Source of the DNA: Verrucomicrobiota bacterium
GTDB taxonomy: Bacteria; Verrucomicrobiota; Verrucomicrobiia; Limisphaerales; CAIMTB01
DNA length: 64,000 bases
Assembly: GCA_963205105.1 (NCBI GenBank)
Contig: CAUJJW010000274.1
Location: 2,377-66,376 of the forward strand
Direction: 5' to 3'
A program made the translations under genes and the position numbers. Positions 9,854 through 43,207 of this stretch are shown here, in pieces. Positions within the stretch are counted from its first letter, which is position 1. Every line of letters starts with the position of its first letter. The notes under the pieces are model-generated. The model was not told the origin of the DNA. It searched no databases and saw nothing but the letters and a program-made list of their open reading frames with translations.

Positions 9854-11632
9854 TCAATGCGTGTCGAAGATCGCCTGGTAGGCCTTCACCTTCGCCCGGA
9901 TCGCCGACAGTTCGTCGGTCGTGGGCTTGGCTGGGTCCTTGGCCGGAGGCAGCGCGCCCAATTTGAGCAGAGAAGCCATTAAGAGCAAACGGGCCTTGGT
10001 CGCGGTCAGGTTGTTGCCTTCGATGATCAAGTCTTCCTCGTTGCGCCGCATAAAACCCTGGGGATTCCCACGGTTCACTTTCACCACCGGAAACCCGGTC
10101 AGTGCCGCGAGCCGCAACGAATCCTCCACCGGCGCCGTGAGTCCCCCGCCGGTCACGCCTTCCTGAACAAACCCCGCCAGGGGTTCTTCCTTCAGGTTCG
10201 CCTCCACCCGGGCCATCACATCGACTTCGGTTTCCCCTGACGCGAAGGGGTCCGTGTCCCGCCAGCGGGAGGCCTTTACGATGCCGACAAAAGGCATCGC
10301 CTCCGGCCGCAGCGTCCCATCCGGCTCCTTCACCAACACTTCCACCGTTTGAATCCCCGCACCCTCCCGTTTCACCCCGGTCACTTTCGCAGGCAACGCC
10401 GTGACCCGGACATCCGAGAGGTAGGTGTGCTTCCGGTTGGGAATGAAGGTGACCACCGTGTCGTAACCCACGGCACCCAGGATGCCGCCGAAGCCGCCAC
10501 TCGCCACATAGCCACCCGGGCGAGCGTCGCCCTTCTGCACTTCCCGCCCTGAGAACACCACCTGATCGACGATCAACACGCCACCCAGACGGTTCCGGCC
10601 CGCATCGTCCGCCCATTTCTTGGAGAGAATGTACTGCACGCCATGGACGATGTTGCCATCGCCGTCCGCGCTGATGTAACCGCGTGCCCGCTGGGCACTG
10701 TGACACACCAACGGGTACGTGGTGTCGATCAGCAGATGGAGCCAGTAGGTGGTTTCCTCCACGTTCGGACTGCCTTCCAGCCAGACACCTCCAGCGTACT
10801 CACCGCTCGCCATGGCCTTCTGGATCATCATCGTCGCCAAAGCCAAACGCCCCCGTGGCGCATCGGCCCGATGCTCCCCGTAGCGGAAGAAATCCTTCCC
10901 TCTCGTCTCCGGAGGAATGTCGCCGGTCCCATGGTCCGTGCGTTTCGACGCCGACAGCCCCTTGGTGTAGCCACCCGAAGGAGCCGCCCGATAGAAATCG
11001 AAATCCGCCAGGCCCAGAATCTTCCCGCCATTGCGCTCGATCTCTTCCACAATGCGCGAGGCATCGGGATAGAACGTCTGACGGGATTGTTCGAAAGGTG
11101 CCCCCTTGTAAGCGCCCGCTTCGTCCCACGGCTTGCCATCCTTCTGAACCGCCATGTAGGGCAGCGGGTACAGACCATCTTCAGGCTTCAGCTGAATGGC
11201 GTAAACGGGTCGGTCTGTCGCTGCCACCCAGTTGGTCCGGAACGCGCCGCTCGCGTCCAGATAACCGTCCGGTGGACCGTACAGTTCCGCGACATCCGCT
11301 TCCAACGGGTGCGCTGAAAACGCCTCGACGTACACCGTCGCCGGCGCCGCCAGACGTTGCGGATAGAGCCGATCGAACGGCAGCGGCTTGCCGTCCGCTC
11401 CCTTGAGAAGCTCCAAGCCGCGCTCGCGGCGTGCCTTGTTGCTGGTGATCAGCGCATAGGAGTTCTGAATCGTCGCCGTCGGCCCCGAGAAGATGGCGAT
11501 CTTCGGTTTCGGACCGGTTGCCGCCGGCTTCGACTCAGCTGCGCCAGCCACCGATGCGGTGAAGGAGAGGGCGGCCACCGCCGCCGCCCACAACCATTGA
11601 CCAGTTCTCTCCGGCGCCGCTCGCCTGTCCAT
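9854..11632 (-). CDS. Exported, divergent asparaginase-fold protein (~590 aa, large insertion)
   Basis: Signal-like N-terminus (MDRRAA...WLWAAAVAALSFTASVAGA). It has IFSGPTATIQNS where GGTI is expected, WLEGSPNVEET where HGTDT is expected, VQKGDA (conserved Lys) and a C-terminal NNLTATKARLLLMASL. The ORF-track extension to 11866 overlaps the upstream gene and a repeat. Confidence 0.72.
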   Translation of the reverse strand: MDRRAAPERTGQWLWAAAVAALSFTASVAGAAESKPAATGPKPKIAIFSGPTATIQNSYALITSNKARRERGLELLKGADGKPLPFDRLYPQRLAAPATVYVEAFSAHPLEADVAELYGPPDGYLDASGAFRTNWVAATDRPVYAIQLKPEDGLYPLPYMAVQKDGKPWDEAGAYKGAPFEQSRQTFYPDASRIVEEIERNGGKILGLADFDFYRAAPSGGYTKGLSASKRTDHGTGDIPPETRGKDFFRYGEHRADAPRGRLALATMMIQKAMASGEYAGGVWLEGSPNVEETTYWLHLLIDTTYPLVCHSAQRARGYISADGDGNIVHGVQYILSKKWADDAGRNRLGGVLIVDQVVFSGREVQKGDARPGGYVASGGFGGILGAVGYDTVVTFIPNRKHTYLSDVRVTALPAKVTGVKREGAGIQTVEVLVKEPDGTLRPEAMPFVGIVKASRWRDTDPFASGETEVDVMARVEANLKEEPLAGFVQEGVTGGGLTAPVEDSLRLAALTGFPVVKVNRGNPQGFMRRNEEDLIIEGNNLTATKARLLLMASLLKLGALPPAKDPAKPTTDELSAIRAKVKAYQAIFDTH

Positions 11633-11787: not shown

Positions 11788-13425
11788 TCAGATCGGTACG
11801 GGTTGATAGCCGCCCAACGCCTTTTCGAGATGCGCCATCGCCGCAAAGACCACGTGCTCGGTCCACGGCCGTCCCACCACCTGGACCCCGATGGGAAGCT
11901 TGTTCTTGCAGGAGCCTCCCCGGACGACGCCCGCCGGGTATCCCGTGATGTTGTAGATGGACGTGAAGCTCGCTCCGGGCAGTTCGGTCACCTTGTCCGG
12001 ATCACCGATCATCGGGAGCGGGGTGGAACGAACGGGCGAGATCAGGAGGTCATACTTCTCCATGAAGGTGAGAATCTCTGTTTTGATCGCGTCCTGCGTC
12101 TCCAGCATCGCGATGTACTCGGCCACCGGCACCTGCGGTTGGTCGAATTTGCGCGCCGGTCCCGGAACAATGGTCTTGTACCGCTCCGTCAGGCGCTTCT
12201 GCCATGCGTTGCCGTCGCCGGTCGTCAACTTTCGGCGCAGTTCGTTGGCCTCCATGATCCGGGGCGGAACATCTTCCGCCATGGAACAGCCAGCCGCTTC
12301 CAGTGCCTTGGCCGCGGCCTGGATCACCGCCACCACTTCGCTCGCGGAACCAGCCGCCCCGGGTCCCTGCTGCGTGTAGAACGCCACCCGAAGCCCCCCG
12401 ATCTTCACCACTTTCATGTCCTCCAACGGCACGGCCTGAATTGCCGCGTCGATGTAGTCAGGACCGCTGATGATCGGCAGAATCGTCGCCAAATCCTCCA
12501 CCCGCCGCGCCATCGGCCCCAGCTGCTGGTAGCTGTCGAATGTACCACCGTAGTCGATGATGTGACCCGTGCGAGGAACCCGGCCCGAAGTGGGCTTGAT
12601 CCCGGCAATCCCGCAGGCATGCGACGGACCCCGGATGCTGCCACCAAAGTCCGATCCGATGTCGAACGAAGCACCACCCGCAGCGACAATCGCTCCCGCC
12701 CCACCGCTGGACCCATAGACCGTGTAGCGCGGGTCGTAGGGGTTTCGGGTCATCCCGTAGAGGATATTGGCCGTGGTTCCCAGACCGGAAACACCGCCGG
12801 TGGTGAACTCCGGGGTGTTGGTCTTGCCCAACAAAATGGCACCGGCGGCACGCAGGCGGGCGACAACGGTCGCGTCTCGTGGAGGAACGTAATGCGAGCG
12901 ACCCTGCGTGCCACCGGTGGAAATCACACCTTCCGTCTCAATGGAGTCCTTAATGGTCATCGGCACCCCGTGCAGCGGGCCCTTGACCTGACCTTTCGAA
13001 AGCGCTTCATCCGCCGACTTCGCCTCGGCGAGCGCCCGTTCGAAGCACGGCATCACCACCGCGTTCAGCATCGGATCGACCTTCTGGATCCGATCGATGT
13101 GCAGCTTCACGACTTCCGTCGACGATATCTTCTTTTCCCGAATCATCTGGGCCAGACGCGTCGCCGACATGAACAACGGGTTGTCCGAGGTGTCGGCCGA
13201 CGCGCGATAGGTCCCCGCGGCCAGAGCGCCGCCGATGACGCCGCTCACCGAAGCCACGGCGGAGGGGCGGGTGCGGGTGCGGCGGCGGAAGAGGTCGCGA
13301 CGTGAGATCCCCGGCCGGGATTCGGCGGTGCGCGGCGTGGAACCAACGGCAGGACTTACGGTTTCAGGAGAGGTGTGCATGGGTTGAGGAGGAGGAAAGG
13401 GTTTCGGTGATCGGGACCAGGGCAT
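11788..13425 (-). CDS. Amidase-signature (AS) family amidase, Tat-type clade
   Basis: PMTIKDS (Lys), GSSGGAGA (cis-Ser) and GSDFGGSIRGP (nucleophile Ser). Twin-Arg motif SRRDLF. ATG overlaps the upstream TGA (TGATG). Confidence 0.93.
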   Translation of the reverse strand: MPWSRSPKPFPPPQPMHTSPETVSPAVGSTPRTAESRPGISRRDLFRRRTRTRPSAVASVSGVIGGALAAGTYRASADTSDNPLFMSATRLAQMIREKKISSTEVVKLHIDRIQKVDPMLNAVVMPCFERALAEAKSADEALSKGQVKGPLHGVPMTIKDSIETEGVISTGGTQGRSHYVPPRDATVVARLRAAGAILLGKTNTPEFTTGGVSGLGTTANILYGMTRNPYDPRYTVYGSSGGAGAIVAAGGASFDIGSDFGGSIRGPSHACGIAGIKPTSGRVPRTGHIIDYGGTFDSYQQLGPMARRVEDLATILPIISGPDYIDAAIQAVPLEDMKVVKIGGLRVAFYTQQGPGAAGSASEVVAVIQAAAKALEAAGCSMAEDVPPRIMEANELRRKLTTGDGNAWQKRLTERYKTIVPGPARKFDQPQVPVAEYIAMLETQDAIKTEILTFMEKYDLLISPVRSTPLPMIGDPDKVTELPGASFTSIYNITGYPAGVVRGGSCKNKLPIGVQVVGRPWTEHVVFAAMAHLEKALGGYQPVPI

Positions 13426-33162: not shown

Positions 33163-35844
33163 TCAGAAGGTCCTTCCAAGGGTGAACTCGAAGTTGATCG
33201 GCTGGCGCACGCCGACCATCATTCCGTTGTTGGCGCCGCGAACGTAGAACTGCTCGTCGGTCAGGTTGTTGACATCGAACTTCGCGCTCCAGGCTCCCTT
33301 GGCGTAGAAGAGTGAAGCGTTGAGAACCGTGGCCGATGGAAGATTCCAGATCAGAGTACGGTCAGCAGCGAATCCACCTTGGTGCGACACACCAAACGCG
33401 CCGCCCAGACCCGAGCTGTGATTGTAGGTGACGAAGAGGTTCAGGATTTTGTCCGGAATACCAGGAACCTCGGAGTACACGTCGCCGCCCAGGATGCGGA
33501 TCTGGGGAACACCACCCCAACCGAACGCTTCGGCAGGCGCGATGATTTCGCCGGTCGCCGGATCCCGCACGTCCGAGAAACCAGCGTACCGCCCATTGAT
33601 GCGCACGGTTTGGTCGGAGCCATCCAGGTACTCGGCTTTGCTGAATGAGCCGGAAGCGACAATGCTCACGCTGGGGATCGGCACATAGCGCAGTTCGACC
33701 TCGATGCCTCGGCTCTCGGTCTTGTCCACGGAGGCCTCGGCATCGCCTTGGGCGAACGAGATGCGGTTCTGTTCGAACACCGCGAAGGTTGCGAAGAGCT
33801 TGTTCTCCAAAAGCTGGGTCTTCACACCCACTTCCATGATTTGCGATTGCCCATAGGCACCGCCGCGCCAGGTGGCAGGGGCAATCGACGCATCCGAGGT
33901 GTCCACGATGAGCGCGGCTTGCTGGGCCATCGTGAAGTAGGGACGGATGTTCAGCGGGAGAGCGTAGCTCACACTCGCATTCCACGAGAGCGCCGAGTCA
34001 CTGCCGCGGGTGGTCGACGGACTGGTGGTGAGACGACTGTCCAAGGCGTCGGTCGTGCCAATGTTCGCGGCGTTCTTCCCAGCAAACACGCCCGCAGGTT
34101 GGGTATGATCGCCGTCCACATAGTCAAACCGGCCGCCCAGGATCAGGTTCACCTTCTCGAAGAAGGTCTGGTCCGTGAGCAAACCGACGCCCGCCTCGAT
34201 GTACTGGGAATCGTTGATCTGGGTGATGGCACTTCCATCCAGTCCCCGCTTCTCGAGGAAGCTGTAGAAGGTGTCGTTCGGGGTGAAGTTCCCGTTCGAG
34301 CCACCCATCAGATCGCGGCGCTGATCGAAGTCCGAATTGGTGGTGTTCTCGCGGAAGGTGTCGGTGTACCGAATGTTCGGTGAGGCCAGGATCTGACCTT
34401 CCCACCATTCCGGCAGGTAGTCCGCCTTGTGGGCTGCCGTGAATTTCTCCTCAAACAGTCGTGGCTTTTGGATCTGCGAGAAGGGATTCCGGCCGTCCTT
34501 GATCTGATTGTAGAAGTGATAATAGAGCTGGTTCTTGAGCGTGAGTTCCTCGTTCGAGTCGTTGATGACGTCGAAGAAGAAGTCATACACGTCCGCGTCG
34601 TAGTAATCTTCGCCCAAAGTCTTGGAGGTGTCCGCGTCCACCAGACGGAAGGAGGAGTAGTCCAGCTGCCAGGGTTCCGGCAGTCCGTTCAGTGCGGACG
34701 TTCCGGTGCCAATCGGCGCACCGGTCACGATGTTGACGAGGGGACCATTCGGCCGACCGTTGGCGTCCACGCTTTGTTTCTTCAGATTATTGACCTGATC
34801 GGGCGTGGAAATCGTCCCGAAGCTGACGAAGATCGGGTTGTAGGTGGCCGTCGCGGGACGGGACCCGAACAGTTCCCGTTCCGAGATCCGGCCGTTGCCG
34901 TCCGCGTCGAGCTGGTTGGCGAACCCGCCGCTCCAGTACTTCCCCTGGGTGAACAGTTCCTCGGTCACGCGGTTGATACCGCCGTTGAGGCCGCCCTTGG
35001 AGAACTGGGCCACTCCGCCGAATTCGGCGCGCCAGCTGTCGGTCAGCTCCGCCGAGACGGCGATCTGGTTGACGAAGTGTTTGTCGAAAGCGGTCTCGTA
35101 ATACGAACCCGAGTCTTCGAGGTAGCCGTAATAGTAAAAGCCGGCCTTGCGATCCCCGGGTAGACCCTTGATCGGGCCGCCGAAGTCAAAGGTCGCCACG
35201 CGCCGGTCCCAGGACCCGACACTGAGCGAGACCTTGCCCTCCGCCTTCTCCATGTATTTCCCGGTCACACTTCGGGAGGTCTTCGGATTGAAGTTCAGGT
35301 ACCCACCGATTCGGCCGCCGCCGAAGATCGGCGACGCGGGGCCGCGCACGACTTCGATGCTGTCGAAGGCGGTGAAGATGGTGCGGTAATTGCCCTGCGG
35401 ATCGGGCTTCTTCATGCCGCGGAAGTAATAGTCGCCCGCCTGGTTGCGGACGTTGATGCCGCCTTGCAGGCCGAAGCGGAAATTGGTGTAGGTGCTGGGA
35501 GCAACGCGGTAGAGGTCCTCCACGTTTTCCACGCCCGCCGCGTTCAGCAGTTCCGCGCTGAGCACCGTGACCGACCGCGGTGTCTCCAGCAGAGACTTGC
35601 CAAAACCGATGACGCTTTCGACCGGCGCCGTGGGCAGGATGAACGTCGGGTCGGTCCCGGCCGTCGACTCCAGCGCCTCGACCTCACCCGAGGGATCTTC
35701 GTTCATCGTGCCGGATGCCGGCAGCGACGATTGGGCCGGAGGCGTGCTGCTGGCCGCGGGAGTCTGGGACAACGCCCGGGTGGTGGTTGCGTCCGCGAGG
35801 GCGCCGAGGGCGACTAGGGTTCCGAGTGACTTAGGTAGGCTCAT
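33163..35844 (-). CDS. TonB-dependent receptor (893 aa)
   Basis: Signal peptide, plug-like LLETPRSVTVLSAELL...VEVVRGPASPIFG..GG.LNF..K, many amphipathic beta-strand patterns, C-terminal FDVNNLTDEQFY and a terminal Phe (..GRTF). Confidence 0.92.
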   Translation of the reverse strand: MSLPKSLGTLVALGALADATTTRALSQTPAASSTPPAQSSLPASGTMNEDPSGEVEALESTAGTDPTFILPTAPVESVIGFGKSLLETPRSVTVLSAELLNAAGVENVEDLYRVAPSTYTNFRFGLQGGINVRNQAGDYYFRGMKKPDPQGNYRTIFTAFDSIEVVRGPASPIFGGGRIGGYLNFNPKTSRSVTGKYMEKAEGKVSLSVGSWDRRVATFDFGGPIKGLPGDRKAGFYYYGYLEDSGSYYETAFDKHFVNQIAVSAELTDSWRAEFGGVAQFSKGGLNGGINRVTEELFTQGKYWSGGFANQLDADGNGRISERELFGSRPATATYNPIFVSFGTISTPDQVNNLKKQSVDANGRPNGPLVNIVTGAPIGTGTSALNGLPEPWQLDYSSFRLVDADTSKTLGEDYYDADVYDFFFDVINDSNEELTLKNQLYYHFYNQIKDGRNPFSQIQKPRLFEEKFTAAHKADYLPEWWEGQILASPNIRYTDTFRENTTNSDFDQRRDLMGGSNGNFTPNDTFYSFLEKRGLDGSAITQINDSQYIEAGVGLLTDQTFFEKVNLILGGRFDYVDGDHTQPAGVFAGKNAANIGTTDALDSRLTTSPSTTRGSDSALSWNASVSYALPLNIRPYFTMAQQAALIVDTSDASIAPATWRGGAYGQSQIMEVGVKTQLLENKLFATFAVFEQNRISFAQGDAEASVDKTESRGIEVELRYVPIPSVSIVASGSFSKAEYLDGSDQTVRINGRYAGFSDVRDPATGEIIAPAEAFGWGGVPQIRILGGDVYSEVPGIPDKILNLFVTYNHSSGLGGAFGVSHQGGFAADRTLIWNLPSATVLNASLFYAKGAWSAKFDVNNLTDEQFYVRGANNGMMVGVRQPINFEFTLGRTF

Positions 35845-35947
35845 GTTTGTGAGTCAGTCTGACAGTGTGGCGGGGGAGTGCCACGGAGTGGGTTCGATCG
35901 GCTGGGCACGTGGGGGTTGCCCGCCGCCTTCGGGAACGACTTCCCAA

Positions 35948-35963
35948 AGCACCGCTCATGCCA
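35948..35963 (-). promoter_or_regulatory. Putative sigma-54 (-24/-12) promoter for the TBDR-amidase arm
   Basis: The minus strand reads (C)TGGCATG-AGCG-GTGCT: correct GG-N10-GC spacing with 2 deviations from TGGCACG-N4-TTGCW. About 105 bp upstream of the TBDR ATG. Confidence 0.55.
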
Positions 35964-36353
35964 GCACTTCACCGGACCCATGAGGGCACCAACACCCGGC
36001 AGAGGCCATGAACCGACATGATGCCACCAGACCCTGTCTGTTCATTCTGCCGACGCACCCGCCCCCTCCAGGTCCATCCCTTCACGCCGGGGCCATCGAA
36101 TGAACCAATCCCATCCGGTGGCATGACTGGTGCTCATGAGTGGAGGCCGACCTGCTTCGCTTGCTTTGTCTCTTATTCGCCAATTTCTGGTACGCCTTTG
36201 CCCATGCTGACCAGATTGCTTCACCGGGGGAGGCTATTCCAAGGAGGGCATGGGTCAGGGAGGGTGGATAGCGGTCGTTCGTGCTGGGGTTCGCATACTT
36301 GAATAGAGGCACATCCCTGTCGGCGGCCTCATTCATGACCTCGACCCACCGAG

Positions 36354-36369
36354 TGGCACGTCGCTTGCT
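36354..36369 (+). promoter_or_regulatory. Putative sigma-54 (-24/-12) promoter for the DUF3450-exb-tonB operon
   Basis: TGGCACG-TCGC-TTGCT is a perfect match to the TGGCACG-N4-TTGCW consensus, 150 bp upstream of the ATG at 36520. Confidence 0.75.
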
Positions 36370-36519
36370 TGGGTGATGTGGTGGGGAATCGGGAGTTCCC
36401 ACAACCCGACCGGACCCATCGATCGGTCGTTACGCACCCCCTAGGCGGTCTGACTGCCGCTCCCGAATCCCCACCCTGCAACGCCACTGGTTGAATATTG
36501 TTCCTCCATCGTCGAACCC

Positions 36520-37299
36520 ATGAAGTCATTCACCTCAAGACTCCCCGCCCTGATCGCCACCGGATTTCTGGTGACCGCGATCACCCCATCGGTTACCAGC
36601 GCAACACCTCTGGAGGATCTCCGAAATCTCTGGAAGGAGTGGTCCAAGGTCAAAGGCACCATCTCGGAGGAAAAGAACAACTGGGCCCGCGAACAACAGT
36701 CCATTGCGGACTCCATCGCGGTTTCACGCCAGGAGGTGGAACTGCTGACCTCCCGGCTCAAGGAACTGAACAGCGGCACCACCGGGACCGAGAAGCAGCG
36801 CTCCGAGCTTCTCGACAAGATCGCGGCCTCCAAGACCAGCCTCGCCGTGTTCGCCGAGGCGATCGATAAGTACGAAACCAAGATGCGCGAACTGGTTCCG
36901 GTGATCCCACCCCAGTTGCGCACCGAGCTGTCCGCCCTACTGCAACGCCTGCCCGCCGAGGGCAAACCCACCGCGCTGCCGGTGTCGCAAAGAATTCAGA
37001 CGGTCATCGCCTTCCTCGCCCAGCTCGACAAGTTCAATGCCGGACCGACGTTGATCAGCGAAATCAAGGAGGTGGAACCCGGCAAGTCGCTGGAAGTCAA
37101 AACGCTCTACTTCGGCCTGGGTGCCGCCTACTTCACGGACGCAGCGGCCACCTATGCGGGCCACGGCTATCCGACGCTGGAAGGCTGGAAATGGACCTCG
37201 GTCGACGCGGCCACCGCCAAGCACATCGCGGAGGCGATCTCGATCTATCAAAACGAAAAGCAGCCCGCCTTTGTCTCCCTGCCCGCCCAAATCCGTTGA
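36520..37299 (+). CDS. DUF3450-family periplasmic coiled-coil protein (TtpB-like)
   Basis: Signal peptide, long heptad-rich helix, and a VKTLYFGLGAAYF beta motif followed by GWKW. First gene of the exb/tonB cluster. Confidence 0.75.
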   Translation: MKSFTSRLPALIATGFLVTAITPSVTSATPLEDLRNLWKEWSKVKGTISEEKNNWAREQQSIADSIAVSRQEVELLTSRLKELNSGTTGTEKQRSELLDKIAASKTSLAVFAEAIDKYETKMRELVPVIPPQLRTELSALLQRLPAEGKPTALPVSQRIQTVIAFLAQLDKFNAGPTLISEIKEVEPGKSLEVKTLYFGLGAAYFTDAAATYAGHGYPTLEGWKWTSVDAATAKHIAEAISIYQNEKQPAFVSLPAQIR

Positions 37300-37338
37300 T
37301 TCACGGCCCGCCGCTCCATTCCCAAACTTCTTCTCCCC

Positions 37339-38823
37339 ATGATCATGTCATCGAAACCCTCGCGCGTTCTTCTCACGCTGTCCCTCCTGGTGGCGCTGAG
37401 CCCCCTGTCCCGCCTCGGCGCCCAGGACATTTCCGGCAACACCACGGCTGCCCAAACTCAGCTCGTTCAAGCGCAGCAGGAGTTGTCCAAGCTGCGCGAC
37501 GAGATTACCGCCGCGAAAATCCCGCTCTCCACCGCGCTGCGGGAGGCCGAAACCGAACTCTTCGCCAAACGCCGCGAATCGGAACGCCTGCAACGCTTGG
37601 CCGACAACCGCAACGTTGACCTTCGCAACCTGGAGAACGAACAGAAGCTTCGCGCCGAGGAAGTCGACTACCTGTCGACGCTCCTCACCGACTACCTCAG
37701 CCGCCTCAATTCGACGGTGGACGCCTCCGAAATCCAGATCGTGGGCGAGTCGCTGACCAAGATGCTCAACGTCGGGGAAACGCCGGACATTGCGCGGGAG
37801 CAGATCTTCAAGACCAAACTGGGCTCCATCGACATGGGGTTTGATCGGATCAAGAACCTGCTCGGTGGCGCCAAGTTTGACGGCAAAGCCATCCTTCCCG
37901 GCGGCAGTCTCCAGGATGGAACCTTCCTTCTTCTTGGGCCGTTGTCTTATTTCGCCAGCAAGGACGGAAAAGTCGCGGGACTCGTCGAACGCGGCGCCGC
38001 CATGCACCCCAAGGTGACGGTGTTCTCCGAAAAGGAAATTCCTGCCATCGCAGCCCTGGCCAGCAAGGGCGAGGGACTGCTCTCCATCGACACCACCATG
38101 GGCAAGGCCAAGGCCATCGCCACCAGCAAGGAGTCGATTAGTGAACACATCAAGAAGGGTGGCATCTGGATGATTCCGATCATCGGTTTCGGCATCGCGG
38201 CGCTCTGCATGGCGCTCTTCAAGTTCGGCGAAATCAGCACCGTGAAAGCCCTGCCCGCCAACGTCCTGGAGAAGGTGCTCGCTCTCGTCAGCCAGGGAAA
38301 CATCCCGGAGGCGGCCAAAATGATCCGCACCCATCCAGGACCGGCGGCCAAGATGCTGTCCGAGGCAGTCAAGAATCTCCACCTGCCCAAGGAAGTCGTC
38401 GAAGAAATGATGTTCGAGACGATGCTCGAGACCCAGCCCAAGCTGGAGCGAGGTCTTTCCTTCATCTCGGTGACCGCTTCGGTGGCTCCGCTGCTCGGTC
38501 TGCTGGGCACCGTCACCGGCATGATGACCACCTTCAACCTCATCACCCTCTTCGGTACCGGCGATGCGAAGTCGCTCTCGTCCGGAATTTCCGAGGCACT
38601 CATCACCACCGAGTACGGCCTGATTGTCGCCATCCCTGCCCTCTTGCTCTACGGCTACCTATCCCGCCGAGTGAACGGCATGATGGGCGATTTGGAGCAG
38701 ATTTCCATCGCGTTCAGCAACGGCGTCTCGGCCATTCGCACGCCGGCTAGCGAACCCACCCTGAACCCGGAATCCGGCAAATCGTCTCCGCCGATGGGTT
38801 CGGGCCTGCCCTCCCCCGCGTGA
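37339..38823 (+). CDS. Long MotA/TolQ/ExbB proton-channel protein with periplasmic N-terminal domain (TtpC-like)
   Basis: Signal peptide and coiled coil, then KGGIWMIPI, APLLGLLGTVTGM and GISEALITTEYGLIVAIP. Confidence 0.88.
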   Translation: MIMSSKPSRVLLTLSLLVALSPLSRLGAQDISGNTTAAQTQLVQAQQELSKLRDEITAAKIPLSTALREAETELFAKRRESERLQRLADNRNVDLRNLENEQKLRAEEVDYLSTLLTDYLSRLNSTVDASEIQIVGESLTKMLNVGETPDIAREQIFKTKLGSIDMGFDRIKNLLGGAKFDGKAILPGGSLQDGTFLLLGPLSYFASKDGKVAGLVERGAAMHPKVTVFSEKEIPAIAALASKGEGLLSIDTTMGKAKAIATSKESISEHIKKGGIWMIPIIGFGIAALCMALFKFGEISTVKALPANVLEKVLALVSQGNIPEAAKMIRTHPGPAAKMLSEAVKNLHLPKEVVEEMMFETMLETQPKLERGLSFISVTASVAPLLGLLGTVTGMMTTFNLITLFGTGDAKSLSSGISEALITTEYGLIVAIPALLLYGYLSRRVNGMMGDLEQISIAFSNGVSAIRTPASEPTLNPESGKSSPPMGSGLPSPA

Positions 38824-38874
38824 ACGTGCTCCGAGAGTTCCCGCAACTCCAACTCCTCAGTCCTAAGCTCCCTT

Positions 38875-39588
38875 ATGCAAGCTGACTTCACCAAAGAGGT
38901 CCTGAAACTCTGGGCGGATGGCGGTTGGTGCATGGTGCCGCTCGCGTTTCAAGCCCTCGCCATTTACTACATCTCCTTCGCGCTCTTCTTCGAAATCCGC
39001 GGTCATCCCGCACTCCGAACGAGCGAAGACGAGTGGGGCCATTGGATCGATCGTCCCGACGACGCCAAAGGCGAGATCGCGCAGATCTTCCGTTTCACAC
39101 AGCAAGGTGTCACCTCCCTGGACACCATCCGCCAGCGGTTCGTGGAGGTCACCAAGGCTTACATTCCCGCCTTGGACCGTCGGATTCGGTTCGTTTTCAT
39201 GATTATTGGCACGGCTCCACTGACGGGCCTGCTCGGAACCGTCACCGGCATGTTGGCGACCTTCGACGGCATCGCCGGTGGTGCCGGCGGAGCGGACACC
39301 GTCGATGTCGTGGCTGGCGGCATCTCTGAGGCTTTGATCACCACGGAAACAGGTCTGGTCATCGCCATCCCTGCTTACGTCGTTCTCGCTCGCATCCGTC
39401 GGTTGCGGGATCAGCTCGAACTGTTCCTGCGCCGGGCGGAAACAATGACACTTCGGCGTTTTGCCCGCGCGCTGCCGGGCGATCCCGATGCCGCAGCTCT
39501 GCCCCCTCACGGGACACCTCCCCATTCGGGACCGACCACTCCCGACGACTTGCCACTACCCATCCCATCCATTCAGCCCGCCACCTAA
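38875..39588 (+). CDS. exbB: ExbB (MotA/TolQ/ExbB family)
   Basis: GGWCMVPL, APLTGLLGTVTGM and GISEALITTETGLVIAIP. Confidence 0.9.
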   Translation: MQADFTKEVLKLWADGGWCMVPLAFQALAIYYISFALFFEIRGHPALRTSEDEWGHWIDRPDDAKGEIAQIFRFTQQGVTSLDTIRQRFVEVTKAYIPALDRRIRFVFMIIGTAPLTGLLGTVTGMLATFDGIAGGAGGADTVDVVAGGISEALITTETGLVIAIPAYVVLARIRRLRDQLELFLRRAETMTLRRFARALPGDPDAAALPPHGTPPHSGPTTPDDLPLPIPSIQPAT

Positions 39589-39627
39589 CCCCACTTCCAG
39601 CAATCTCCCGAACCCGAATCCCCGCTT

Positions 39628-40038
39628 ATGGCCAGACGCTCCCTCTCCCGTGCCATCCAAGTCAGTGACGAGATCAACATCTCGCCCTTGATCGACATGG
39701 TCTTCATTCTGCTCATCTTCTTCATCGTCACCACGGTCTTCGTCGAGGAGACCGGGGTGAATGTGAACAAGCCCCAGGCCAGCGCGGCCATCCCGCTGGA
39801 AGCCAACAGCATCCTCCTCGCCATCACCGACCAGGGCAAGGTGGTGTACGGCGGTCGCGAGGTCGGCATCGCTGGTGTCCGTTCCATCGTCAAACGCCTG
39901 GTTCAGGGCAATGCCGACATGCCCACCATCGTTCAGGCGGACAAAGTCGTGCCTACCGAGCTATTGGTGAAGGTCATCGACGAAGCCAAGCTGGGTGGTG
40001 CCAAGGCCGTGAGCATCTCCACCGAGGGCAACCGCTAG
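39628..40038 (+). CDS. exbD: Biopolymer transporter ExbD
   Basis: [22 protein letters not shown] (conserved Asp in the TM), VQADK and [10 protein letters not shown]. Confidence 0.93.
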
Positions 40039-40053
40039 TCCCCATCACGCACC

Positions 40054-40740
40054 ATGGCATCCCCTTCTCCAACGCGTCTTGCTCCTTTCCGGGTACCGTC
40101 CCGGAGCCGACGGCGACTTGCGCCCACGGTCGCCATGCTCGTTTGCGGCGCCGCAACGTTCCTCCTGCTACCGTTCACCACCCTCATCACCGGAGCAGCC
40201 AGCAACAAGAGGGACCTCACGAGCATCGACCTTAGCCTGCCTCCTCCTCCTCCTCCTCCTCCGGAGATCGACAAACCACCGGAGGAACCACCGCCGCAGG
40301 AGGACACTCCCCCGCCCGACTCCCCCAACAACCAACTGTCACTCGCGCAGATGGATGTGGCTCTCAACGTCGGCTTCGGTGACGCCATGGCCGGTGGCTT
40401 TTCGGTGGAAGGCTTCGCCACCCAGTCCGAGGCCACCACCGTCGCCGACCTCGGGATCTTCGACATCAAGGACCTCGACAAACCCCCGACCCGCACCCGC
40501 ACGGTGACCCCGGTTTACCCCGCGGAACTCAAGCGGGCCCGGGTTCAAGGCAACGTGGTCCTGATGATCATCATCGACCAGAACGGCCGCGTCTCAGTCG
40601 ACAAGGTTGTCGAATCCAGCGCCCGTGAGTTCGAACAATCTGCCATCACGGCGGCTGAACAATGCATCTTCGAGCCTCCCATGAAAGGCGGCCAAGCCGT
40701 TCGCGCCCGTTACCGCATGCAAGTTCCCTTCCGTCTCTGA
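40054..40740 (+). CDS. tonB: Energy transducer TonB
   Basis: N-terminal TM, Pro-rich spacer, and a C-terminal PVYP..LKRARVQGNV...IDQNGRV...FEPPMKGG TonB domain. Confidence 0.9.
   Translation: MASPSPTRLAPFRVPSRSRRRLAPTVAMLVCGAATFLLLPFTTLITGAASNKRDLTSIDLSLPPPPPPPPEIDKPPEEPPPQEDTPPPDSPNNQLSLAQMDVALNVGFGDAMAGGFSVEGFATQSEATTVADLGIFDIKDLDKPPTRTRTVTPVYPAELKRARVQGNVVLMIIIDQNGRVSVDKVVESSAREFEQSAITAAEQCIFEPPMKGGQAVRARYRMQVPFRL
40240..40260 (+). repeat. (CCT)7 trinucleotide microsatellite encoding TonB poly-Pro
   Basis: Seven perfect CCT codons in a row, read directly. Confidence 0.85.
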
Positions 40741-40785
40741 TTTGATCTCATCCCCTGATTTCCAGCTCATCCCGTCTCCCATCCC

Positions 40786-42138
40786 ATGAAACTCAAAATC
40801 TTCGCCTCCAGTCTCGCGCTCGCCTTACTCCCCGCCTCGGGAGCTGACCCGTTGTTCGAAAATTCCTGGAATAATCCCCAGTTCGTCGCCCGTTTCGTCG
40901 GAACCTACGGGTTCGACACCGCCTTGAACCCGGGAATCACCCAGGAGGAGAAGCTGGTGTTCGACAAGTTGGTCCCTCTGATCCAATCCCAGCCCGCCCA
41001 GGCGATAACCGCCCTGAAAGCAGCGATCACCCCCACCAGCAGTGCGGCCCTCGATTTCACCCTGGGCAACCTCTACTTCCAGTCGAAGTCATTTCCCGAA
41101 GCCACCGCCGCCTACCAGGGTGCGCTCAAAAAATTCCCGAACTTCCTCCGGGTTCACAAGAACCTGGGTCGTCTCTTCGTGCAGCAGGGCGATGCCAAGT
41201 CCGCCTTGGCCCACCTCTTGCGCGTGATTGAACTCGGCGGCGCCGAAGGCGACATCTACGGGCTGGTCGGCTACTGCTACCTCCAGGGAGGAGCCGTCAC
41301 CAGCGCCCTCGACGCCTACCGATCCGCCCTCCTGTTCGCTCCCAAGAGCCGGGATTGGCGCATGGGCAAAATCCAGTGTCTGGTGAACCTGGGCGTGCAC
41401 AAAGAAGCCGCCGCCATGCTGGACGAACTCATCACCGAAAAACCCGACGACGCCGGTCTTTGGCTGCTGCAAGCCAACGCCTACGTGGCTTCGGGAAATT
41501 CGGCGGACGCCGCCGTCAATCTGGAGCTGGTGCGTCAGATGGGGAAAGCGACCCCGATCAGCCTTGCGCTCCTCGGCGACATTTACATCAACGCCAACCA
41601 ACCCGACCTCGCTCTCGCCGCCTATCAGGACCTGCTCAAGGGCGAACAAATCGACCAGGAACGAGCCCTCCGTGCCGCCCGCATTCTGGCCTCCCGCGGT
41701 GCTTGGACCGAAGCCGACGCCTACCTCAAGGAACTGAACCAACGCCTGAGCGCGAAACTGCCCGCCTCCGGTCAAAGCGAAGTGGCGTCCCTGCTGGCCA
41801 AAGTTGCTCTCGCCCGTGGTGAGGACGACAAGGCTGCCGCCATGCTCACCAAGGTGCTGGAAACCGACCCGCTCAACGGCAGGGCGCTCCTGCTTCTGGC
41901 CGATTATCACTGGAAAAAGAATGACCGCGAGCGAGCCGACCTCTACTACACTCGCGCCGCGACCGTGGAAGATGTGCGGGTCGAGGCGCTGCTCCAGCAC
42001 GCCCGCATGAATGTCGCCCTCAAGGAGTTTGCGGCCGCCACCAAGCTCCTCGCCCGGGCCCAGTCCATCAAACCCCAGGCCCACGTGGGTGATTTCCTCG
42101 CCAAAGTGGAAGCAGCAGCCCGTGCCACCCGGTTCTGA
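40786..42138 (+). CDS. Tetratricopeptide-repeat protein (TtpD-like), exported
   Basis: Signal peptide and multiple TPR-like helical repeats (LGNLYF..., LGRLFVQQG..., LLGDIYIN...). Last gene of the tonB cluster. Confidence 0.85.
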   Translation: MKLKIFASSLALALLPASGADPLFENSWNNPQFVARFVGTYGFDTALNPGITQEEKLVFDKLVPLIQSQPAQAITALKAAITPTSSAALDFTLGNLYFQSKSFPEATAAYQGALKKFPNFLRVHKNLGRLFVQQGDAKSALAHLLRVIELGGAEGDIYGLVGYCYLQGGAVTSALDAYRSALLFAPKSRDWRMGKIQCLVNLGVHKEAAAMLDELITEKPDDAGLWLLQANAYVASGNSADAAVNLELVRQMGKATPISLALLGDIYINANQPDLALAAYQDLLKGEQIDQERALRAARILASRGAWTEADAYLKELNQRLSAKLPASGQSEVASLLAKVALARGEDDKAAAMLTKVLETDPLNGRALLLLADYHWKKNDRERADLYYTRAATVEDVRVEALLQHARMNVALKEFAAATKLLARAQSIKPQAHVGDFLAKVEAAARATRF

Positions 42139-42163: not shown

Positions 42164-43207
42164 ATGTCTGCTGATCCCGTGACCGTTCCTTCCGAAACCC
42201 TCGTCGAGGACGTCGCTGACACCACTCCGGTGGAGCAGTCGGCGTCCTCGACCCCGGCCCCCGAGGAACCCGCGAGCCCTTCGCACCGCTCGCAACAACC
42301 GCTGTTCGACACCCGCCAACTGCTGACCTTCTCCACGCTGGCGCAGACGGGAAGCTTCACCCAGACCGCCCGCGAGTTGCACGTGTCCCAATCCGCGGTC
42401 AGCCACGCCATTGGCGACCTCGAACGGAAGGTCGGCTGTCGGTTGTTCGAACGCACCAGCCGGCGGGTGCTGCTGACCCTCGCCGGCGAGCAACTGCTCC
42501 ATCACGCCGGCAAGATCAGCGCCGAAATGGCGGTAGCCTATGAAAGCCTCCAATCCCTGCGAAACTGGGGCCAGATCCAGCTAAGAATCTCCGCCCCGGC
42601 CTCCATCTGCGACGGCCTCCTGCCCCAATGCCTGCACCAGGTCCGGCGCAGTTACCCTCACGCACGCATCAGCATCGGGGTCGCCGACCGGCGGGAATCC
42701 CTCGCTGAACTCGGCGCCGGCCGGGTGGACGTCGCCGTGTGCCCAGGGTCTGAACCCGACGAGCGCTTCGATCGCATTCCTCTGTTCAACGACGAGCTGG
42801 TGTTCGTGATGGCGCCCTCCCATCCGTGGGCCTCCTCCCCGCCGACCGATCCCGCCGTGATCGGAGCGGAGCCGCTGCTCACCTACCGCCGCCAAACCTA
42901 CACTTGGCAGCTCATTCAGAACCATTTCACCGCGGACGGCATCCACCCAACGATCGCGCTGGACTGCGACAGTGTGGTCACGATCCGGGAGATGGCCCGG
43001 CTGGGCATGGGGGTGGCGGTGCTCGCCCGATGGGCCATCACCGCCGAAGTGGCTGCCGGACACCTTGCGTGGGCTCCGCTGGGAACCCGGCCGCTCGTTC
43101 GCAAGTGGGCCGCTTTCTCGCTGCGCACCCGGAGGCTGTCGCTTGCCCAGACTCTGTTCATCGAACAGCTCCGTCGCACGGCCCTGGACCGACTGGCAAC
43201 ATCCTGA
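42164..43207 (+). CDS. LysR-family transcriptional regulator
   Basis: HTH GSFTQTARELHVSQSAVSHAIGDLERKVGCRLFERTSRRVLLTLAGE and a substrate-binding domain (GRVDVAV, GMGVAVL). Has a ~45-aa acidic N-terminal extension, so the start is uncertain. Confidence 0.92.
   Translation: MSADPVTVPSETLVEDVADTTPVEQSASSTPAPEEPASPSHRSQQPLFDTRQLLTFSTLAQTGSFTQTARELHVSQSAVSHAIGDLERKVGCRLFERTSRRVLLTLAGEQLLHHAGKISAEMAVAYESLQSLRNWGQIQLRISAPASICDGLLPQCLHQVRRSYPHARISIGVADRRESLAELGAGRVDVAVCPGSEPDERFDRIPLFNDELVFVMAPSHPWASSPPTDPAVIGAEPLLTYRRQTYTWQLIQNHFTADGIHPTIALDCDSVVTIREMARLGMGVAVLARWAITAEVAAGHLAWAPLGTRPLVRKWAAFSLRTRRLSLAQTLFIEQLRRTALDRLATS

Follow-up and report, generated by a model that had tools for sequence, protein, structure and literature searches.

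The locus described here raises the question of how two divergent gene arms, one headed by a TBDR gene and the other encoding a TonB2-type energiser, are controlled from the 675-bp gap that separates them. An earlier note on this DNA had proposed that two back-to-back sigma-54 promoters in the gap drive both arms. The sigma-54 holoenzyme forms a closed complex at -24/-12 promoters, which opens only through an AAA+ activator (EBP) bound at a distance; canonical promoters of this type (TGGCACG-N4-TTGCW) include E. coli glnAp2, Pseudomonas Pu and Klebsiella nifH. Verrucomicrobiota are degraders that abound in soils, waters and wastewater biofilms, and their transcriptional wiring is almost unmapped; our literature searches turned up no paper in which TonB systems or TBDRs of Verrucomicrobia are placed under sigma-54 control. 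We analysed the whole stretch of 64,000 nucleotides (hereafter, the window), which corresponds to positions 2377-66376 of contig C274 in the host assembly (G000; 8.18 Mb, 63.6% GC, 412 contigs). The DNA runs with matches to this stretch were biofilm and wastewater metagenomes.

Gene content of the two arms

The divergent gap (35845-36519) is bounded by the ATG of the TBDR gene (35844, minus strand) and the ATG of the DUF3450 gene (36520, plus strand). The genes on either side were assigned as follows.

11788-33179, minus strand: amidase/asparaginase array downstream of the TBDR gene (Pfam, PF01425 genome search, ORF spacing)
33163-35844, minus strand: TBDR of 893 aa with a Plug domain, heading the minus arm (Pfam)
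36520-42138, plus strand: genes for DUF3450, a long ExbB-like protein (494 aa), ExbB, ExbD, TonB and a TPR protein (Pfam)
42164-43207, downstream on the plus arm: LysR gene (Pfam)

Eleven amidase-signature genes were detected on the contig by the PF01425 search, eight of which were confirmed by the Pfam domain scan, and the array also holds at least two asparaginase-fold genes (Pfam). The minus-arm genes are co-directional, with small gaps or overlaps, down to at least position 11788; the TBDR gene and the array are presumed to form one long transcription unit, read from the site named P1 below. The plus arm follows the TonB2/Ttp gene order, namely DUF3450 (TtpB), the long ExbB-like protein (TtpC), ExbB, ExbD, TonB and the TPR protein (TtpD).

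Three sigma-54-type sites in the divergent gap

Motif scanning, combined with the conservation analysis given below, located three putative sigma-54 promoters in the gap.

35963-35948, minus strand: P1, TGGCATGAGCGGTGCT (TGGCATG-AGCG-GTGCT), from motif scan and conservation
36119-36134, plus strand: P2, TGGCATGACTGGTGCT, from mismatch-tolerant scan and conservation
36354-36369, plus strand: P3, TGGCACGTCGCTTGCT (TGGCACG-TCGC-TTGCT), perfect consensus and conservation

P3 and P1 are the two motifs that the earlier note had named, and both were present as described: P3 matches the TGGCACG-N4-TTGCW consensus at 12/12 positions and faces the tonB arm, and P1 faces the TBDR with two mismatches (10/12) and its GG-N10-GC spacing intact. 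P2, which also matches at 10/12 positions, had been missed. The GG-N10-GC core (-24/-12, exactly one helical turn) is intact in P1, P2, P3 and all 15 orthologous sites (GGCAY-N6-TGCT). P2 is a near-inverted copy of P1, lies back-to-back with it at a distance of 155 bp, and is found 235 bp upstream of P3, so that P2 and P3 stand in tandem, facing the DUF3450-ExbB-ExbB-ExbD-TonB-TPR operon. The proposed pair was right in that both motifs appear to be real, but the gap holds three sites, and the true back-to-back partner of P1 is P2. The ~390 bp between the two named motifs, where the note placed a bound activator, in fact contains this equally conserved sigma-54 site.

Transcription start sites (TSSs) are predicted from the motifs near 35937 for P1 (93 nt ahead of the TBDR ATG), near 36145 for P2 (with 385 bp from P2 to the DUF3450 ATG, and P3 between) and near 36380 for P3 (140 nt ahead of the DUF3450 ATG). 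Scanning the gap for sigma-70-type promoters revealed none. An Rfam scan of 35500-36900 (E <= 1) gave no match, and known riboswitches or sRNAs are accordingly absent from the gap. The single RNA-labelled metagenome run consisted only of shallow contigs from relatives (85-95% identity), which carried neither strand nor end information.

Enrichment of the motif in the host genome

We then considered how often such motifs occur by chance. With up to two mismatches, the 64-kb window contains six matches, compared with 10.9 expected from shuffled sequences, which is not above chance; three of these six, however, fall inside the 675-bp gap, or ~1% of the window. Perfect consensus matches numbered four in 8.18 Mb, and all four are intergenic and gene-facing, a class that makes up ~7% of the search space. 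On these two grounds, the sigma-54 motif in the gap is present as described and beyond chance.

A relaxed pattern, TGGCAYG-N5-TGCW, gave 24 genomic matches: 14 in promoter position (three of them in the studied gap), nine in coding DNA and one intergenic but wrongly oriented. The corresponding densities were 12.5, 0.65 and 1.0 per Mb, a 12-19 times enrichment at promoter positions, based on gene calls from our own crude caller (84.5% coding). Spacing controls with one base fewer or more (N4 and N6) showed no enrichment at promoter positions. Among the 10 genomic matches to TGGCATG-N5-TGCW, all eight intergenic ones are promoter-oriented, the other two being coding, and the variant carried by P1 and P2 (TGGCATG-N4-GTGCW) occurs four times in the genome, in promoter position each time. 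Judged from these matches, the local sigma-54 consensus reads TGGCAYG-N4-NTGCW, tolerating TGGCATG and any base at -15.

The genome also encodes the matching machinery. An intact rpoN, the presence of which the earlier note had offered as a check, was found as a 488-aa ORF with a PF04552 match (E = 7e-53), region I and the RpoN box ARRTVAKYR, reaching the contig end; in addition, 16-17 strong PF00158 matches represent EBP genes. The other promoter-position matches precede flgF/G (flagellar rod), a Ro60/TROVE-vWA gene, a gene for a PRC/BON protein and genes for secreted CTERM proteins, and a probable glnK/amtB-like locus also has a sigma-54 site. These genes fit a sigma-54 regulon, with flgF/G, Ro60/TROVE and glnK/amtB counting among its classic targets.

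By motif, sigma-54 promoters are present at each of the four amidase arrays in the genome. Outside the window, sigma-54 sites head arrays of six amidase-signature genes (C299:28693-39632, TGGCATGGCCGGTGCT), three such genes (C212:61243-66206, TGGCACATCGAGTGCT) and at least one (C140:531-2195, TGGCATGCGGGCTGCT). The three additional arrays suggest a genome-wide sigma-54 'amidase regulon'.

A second TonB2-type cluster (C275:345-8994; DUF3450 identity 30%) was observed within a long co-directional gene run, and no sigma-54-like site was found upstream of it. Sigma-54 control therefore seems specific to the TonB2-type copy that faces the receptor.

Conservation in orthologous loci

Footprinting in relatives, another check put forward in the earlier note, was performed on five orthologous loci in which the motifs proved to be kept. 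Three are from genus-level genomes (L024, L025 and L026, with DUF3450 identities of 62, 53 and 72%, respectively), and two from metagenome contigs (L056, 90%; L055, 77%). Of 14 genomes of the genus, four (G000, G003, G005 and G008) carry the locus. Together with the window they form a six-locus alignment (DUF3450 identity 53-90%); a further short contig (L057, 87%) provided 170 bp of upstream DNA, in which a single GGCAY-N6-TGCT (P3) is present. In the orthologous loci, the DUF3450 gene lies opposite a divergent gene across 480-700 bp, and the 5' ends of the divergent genes, where read, resemble the start region of the window TBDR (a resemblance read from the sequence).

Exactly three GGCAY-N6-TGCT sites were found per locus in 6/6 loci, in the strand order minus, plus, plus. 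Invariant positions in the six-way alignment amounted to 28/36 of the specified motif positions vs 48/627 elsewhere (Fisher p = 4e-22), with 9/12 for P1, 10/12 for P2 and 9/12 for P3; the N4 spacers are variable, with 3/12 spacer positions invariant. P1 and P2 are 154-156 bp apart in four of the six loci and 177-187 bp apart in the other two, and the P2-P3 distance ranges from 233 to 270 bp. Across loci, 80-122 bp separate P1 from the start of the divergent gene, and 117-167 bp separate P3 from the DUF3450 ATG. The combination of conserved specified positions with free spacers and fixed spacing is what sigma-54 recognition elements are expected to show, and by enrichment and orthologue conservation alike, both motifs of the earlier note behave as genuine sigma-54 promoters would. 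The three-site pattern was absent from all ~25 loci of distant DUF3450 homologues (24-38% identity), for which 1.5 kb upstream of each was searched. We also considered conserved small ORFs in the P2-P3 interval and rejected them, as their start codons are unconserved and the alignment is full of indels.

Candidate enhancers and search for an activator

Two conserved elements outside the promoters are candidate EBP-binding enhancers.

36006-36106, no strand assigned: ATGA-type boxes, candidate enhancer for P1/P2, inferred from the alignment only; box A, CCATGAACC, 36006-36014; box B, inverted, 36038-36045; box C, GAATGAACC, 36098-36106
36198-36217, no strand assigned: U2 block, TTGCCCATGCTGACCAGATT, candidate enhancer for P3, from six-way conservation

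The ATGA boxes, flanked by the back-to-back pair of P1 and P2, are held at fixed offsets, and their flanks co-vary within species (ATGAAC here, ATGAATCG in L056 and ATGAGTC in L026). The motif statistics for the boxes are weak: k-mer tests for a motif shared by the four amidase promoters were topped by CATG-containing 8-mers, with nothing surviving multiple testing, and the CATG density of the gap ranks a modest 25th of 712 intergenic regions. The presence of CCATGAACC alone says little, because this 9-mer also terminates a dispersed repeat present in ~1000 copies.

The 20-nt U2 block is as conserved as the promoters, holds the 12-nt window of highest identity outside them and is centred ~170 bp upstream of the predicted P3 TSS. 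The U2 pattern TTGCCCANNCTGACCAGNTT (17 specified bases) has its sole other exact genomic match on contig C180, ~85 bp upstream of a sigma-54 site; weaker matches are dispersed, and most of them lie within coding DNA. Both enhancer candidates, which come from six related sequences and one paralogous match, are leads and not proofs.

The statement in the earlier note that no activator is encoded in the window was borne out and can be extended, as no PF00158 match was found on the window or elsewhere on the 68-kb contig C274. In two relatives, no EBP gene lies beside the orthologous locus; the nearest is 33 kb away in one (G003) and on another contig in the other (G005). An E. coli-type NtrC site (TGCACCA-N3-TGGTGCA) was not found in the gap, where the best match has 4/14 mismatches and 0.25 such matches are expected (chance level); a verrucomicrobial NtrC site may differ from this dyad, which was likewise not found at the other amidase promoters.

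Transcript leaders and special features of P2

The predicted P3 transcript begins with a possible long-range stem.

36380-36475, plus strand: P3 leader stem, 36380-36395 pairing with 36460-36475 (fold prediction)

This stem (16 nt, 94% complementary) begins at the predicted +1, and the leader has an MFE of -52.2 kcal/mol (z -2.7). The stem is identical in L056 and, by eye, kept in L055 via changes on both sides. RNAalifold across the six loci did not support it and gave only weak consensus structures for the P3 and P1 leaders; as a predicted structure, the stem is convincing in the closer relatives only. In the TBDR leader (window 35869-35925, minus-strand transcript), we observed an imperfect inverted repeat and two blocks conserved across orthologues (35879-35890 and 35919-35930), for which RNAalifold found no convincing common structure.

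P2 has features of its own. An invariant CAT, outside the sigma-54 consensus, follows its -12 element (TGCT), and the site contains a CATGA-N7-TCATG dyad, which in L024 becomes a perfect 9-1-9 palindrome (GCATGAGCA-G-TGCTCATGC). With this extra invariant CAT and the dyad, P2 could have a second role.

Proposed control of the locus and alternative explanations

P1, P2 and P3 read as ordinary sigma-54 promoters by every sequence-level criterion tested. We favour, with a probability of roughly 75%, the explanation that all three are functional, P1 serving the TBDR and amidase array and P2/P3 the TonB2-type operon, with activation by one or more EBPs encoded in trans. P1 would transcribe the TBDR gene together with the amidase/asparaginase array behind it, and the tandem P2 and P3, 235 bp apart on the plus strand, the TonB2-type energiser operon. 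Since the sigma-54 closed complex needs remodelling by an EBP, both arms would stay silent until at least one trans-encoded EBP is activated, probably when combined nitrogen runs short or an amide substrate becomes available. The EBP, bound some 80-250 bp away, would then loop over and remodel the closed complex, and receptor, enzymes and motor would appear together. With three conserved sigma-54 promoters in the gap, both arms are thus probably switched on together by an activator encoded elsewhere; a single activator shared by both arms, as the earlier note inferred, may be involved. A nitrogen link is plausible, given the amidase/asparaginase battery on the minus arm and the sigma-54 sites at four amidase arrays and at the glnK/amtB-like locus.

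Three other explanations were weighed against this one. That the motifs are chance matches in GC-rich intergenic DNA, with the operons using other promoters, would agree with the window count, which does not exceed the shuffle expectation; yet the three sites cluster within 675 bp, the motif is biased in orientation and position genome-wide, the sites are kept across orthologues of 53-90% identity while their flanks diverge, and the scan of the gap revealed no sigma-70-like site. We regard this explanation as highly improbable. A narrower alternative accepts P1 and P3 as working promoters and takes P2 as unproductive. P2 would then be either a sigma-54-like sequence that is also, or is solely, an operator whose palindrome (CATGA-N7-TCATG) binds a dimeric regulator, or a 'parking' site at which a closed complex influences P1 and P3. 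The non-consensus CAT and the L024 palindrome would suit an operator, as would the recurrence of CATGA-type boxes within the P1-P2 spacer and the position of P2, 385 bp from the ATG with P3 intervening. The conservation of P2 is asymmetric, however, and suits GG-N10-GC instead: GG is invariant on the left only and TGCT on the right only, and the dyad partners vary. Moreover, the spacing is unchanged in six loci, and the eight intergenic genomic matches to TGGCATG-N5-TGCW are all promoter-oriented, which makes an unproductive P2 unlikely.

More weight, short of an even chance, is due to the possibility that the promoters are real but answer to separate EBPs (e.g., P1 to a general nitrogen regulator and P3 to a different EBP) through separate enhancers, the ATGA boxes and U2, respectively. 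The gap does hold two different conserved non-promoter elements, one of which (U2) recurs on C180 beside an unrelated sigma-54 promoter without amidase or TonB genes; there are ~16 EBPs in the genome to choose from, and the tandem arrangement of P2 and P3 suggests more than one input. Against this, conservation extends to the divergent architecture, to the P1-P2 spacing and to the gene content, nothing points to two regulators, and the receptor needs its motor; the conserved divergent layout and this need together argue for coordinated control.

Comparison with known systems

The gap resembles canonical sigma-54 systems in its GG-N10-GC core with extended consensus, and the genome in its rpoN with RpoN box, its AAA+ EBPs, its gene-facing intergenic sites and a regulon with flagellar, nitrogen-related and Rtc/Ro60-type genes. 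It differs from them in that the host is an uncultured Verrucomicrobiota MAG, in which the sites are predicted from sequence, and in the looser consensus TGGCAYG-N4-NTGCW. The E. coli zraP/zraSR and hyc/hyp loci are divergent sigma-54 promoter pairs that share an intervening enhancer, and the EBP genes zraR and fhlA lie in or beside them. P1 and P2 are similarly placed back-to-back ~155 bp apart with conserved boxes between, an arrangement from which co-induction would be expected; unlike the E. coli loci, however, neither the 68-kb contig nor the surroundings of the orthologous loci contain an EBP gene, and an extra tandem promoter (P3) and the U2 block are present here.

The Vibrio TonB2 and TonB3 systems consist of six genes, ttpB-ttpC-exbB-exbD-tonB-ttpD, described in an iron-transport context (PMC6957404), and the plus arm has the same gene order. 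The window cluster, in contrast, lies opposite a TBDR-amidase operon, with no iron-related genes in its vicinity. It carries tandem sigma-54 promoters, and the comparison with Vibrio is one of gene order. NtrC-dependent nitrogen-scavenging operons offer a third parallel, as the locus encodes ammonia-releasing hydrolases and the genome has a glnK/amtB-like locus with a sigma-54 site; in contrast to such operons, the gap has no E. coli-type NtrC site.

These results provide a clean, conserved sigma-54 promoter set, and a consensus (TGGCAYG-N4-NTGCW) usable for regulon annotation in this group. They also suggest that organic amide uptake and hydrolysis are under sigma-54 control with the TonB motor included, a motor usually regarded as housekeeping or iron-regulated. 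As an element type this is textbook material and offers no new mechanism; its worth is for annotation and for framing hypotheses about an apparent amide-utilisation locus. In the most extended reading, the locus would form the heart of something like a polysaccharide-utilisation locus, but one geared to nitrogen. A sigma-54/EBP circuit working via conserved enhancers (candidates being the ATGA boxes and U2, the latter shared with a candidate sigma-54-driven small RNA on C180) would co-switch the receptor, putatively exported amidases/asparaginases and a private TonB2-type motor, P2/P3 would let two signals, nitrogen status and substrate, act jointly on the motor, and the same logic would govern all four amidase arrays. 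We offer this model tentatively and think it doubtful as a whole.

Other sigma-54 sites and repeats in the genome

Further sigma-54 sites were observed during the genome-wide scan. On C180 (11660-11927; locus L060), a strong site, TGGCACGGCTGATGCT (minus strand, 11809-11824), lies in a convergent intergenic region and points at ~140 nt of non-coding DNA ending in a GC-rich hairpin and a T-run. This segment is a candidate sigma-54-dependent small RNA; it has no Rfam match and a fold z-score of only -1.1. Two perfect sites on the same strand of C133 (29148-29163 and 29899-29914), 751 bp apart, lie upstream of a gene for a secreted protein of unknown family, representing either a second tandem case or a missed small gene between them. 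On C27 (28079-29681), a perfect site precedes a Ro60/TROVE-vWA gene by 33 bp, and the same contig carries an EBP gene ~8 kb off, a layout that recalls the RtcR-controlled rsr-rtc operons of enterobacteria. An identical 16-mer, TGGCACGTGTCGTGCT, occurs at C190:97612-97627, 17 bp upstream of flgF/G, and at C47:6411-6426, in a 3.8-kb stretch without a gene by the crude caller.

The dispersed intergenic repeat mentioned above consists of short variable cassettes between inverted ends (GGTTCATGG ... CCATGAACC) and is perhaps REP/MITE-like. Often 5-10 units are arrayed in tandem, for the most part at the 3' ends of genes, with examples at C206:2120-3024, C156:27281-28063 and C163:40635-41476, and in the window near 11629 and 52713. 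The 9-mer CCATGAACC has ~1000 genomic copies (615 intergenic), compared with 100-300 for most of the single-base variants tested.
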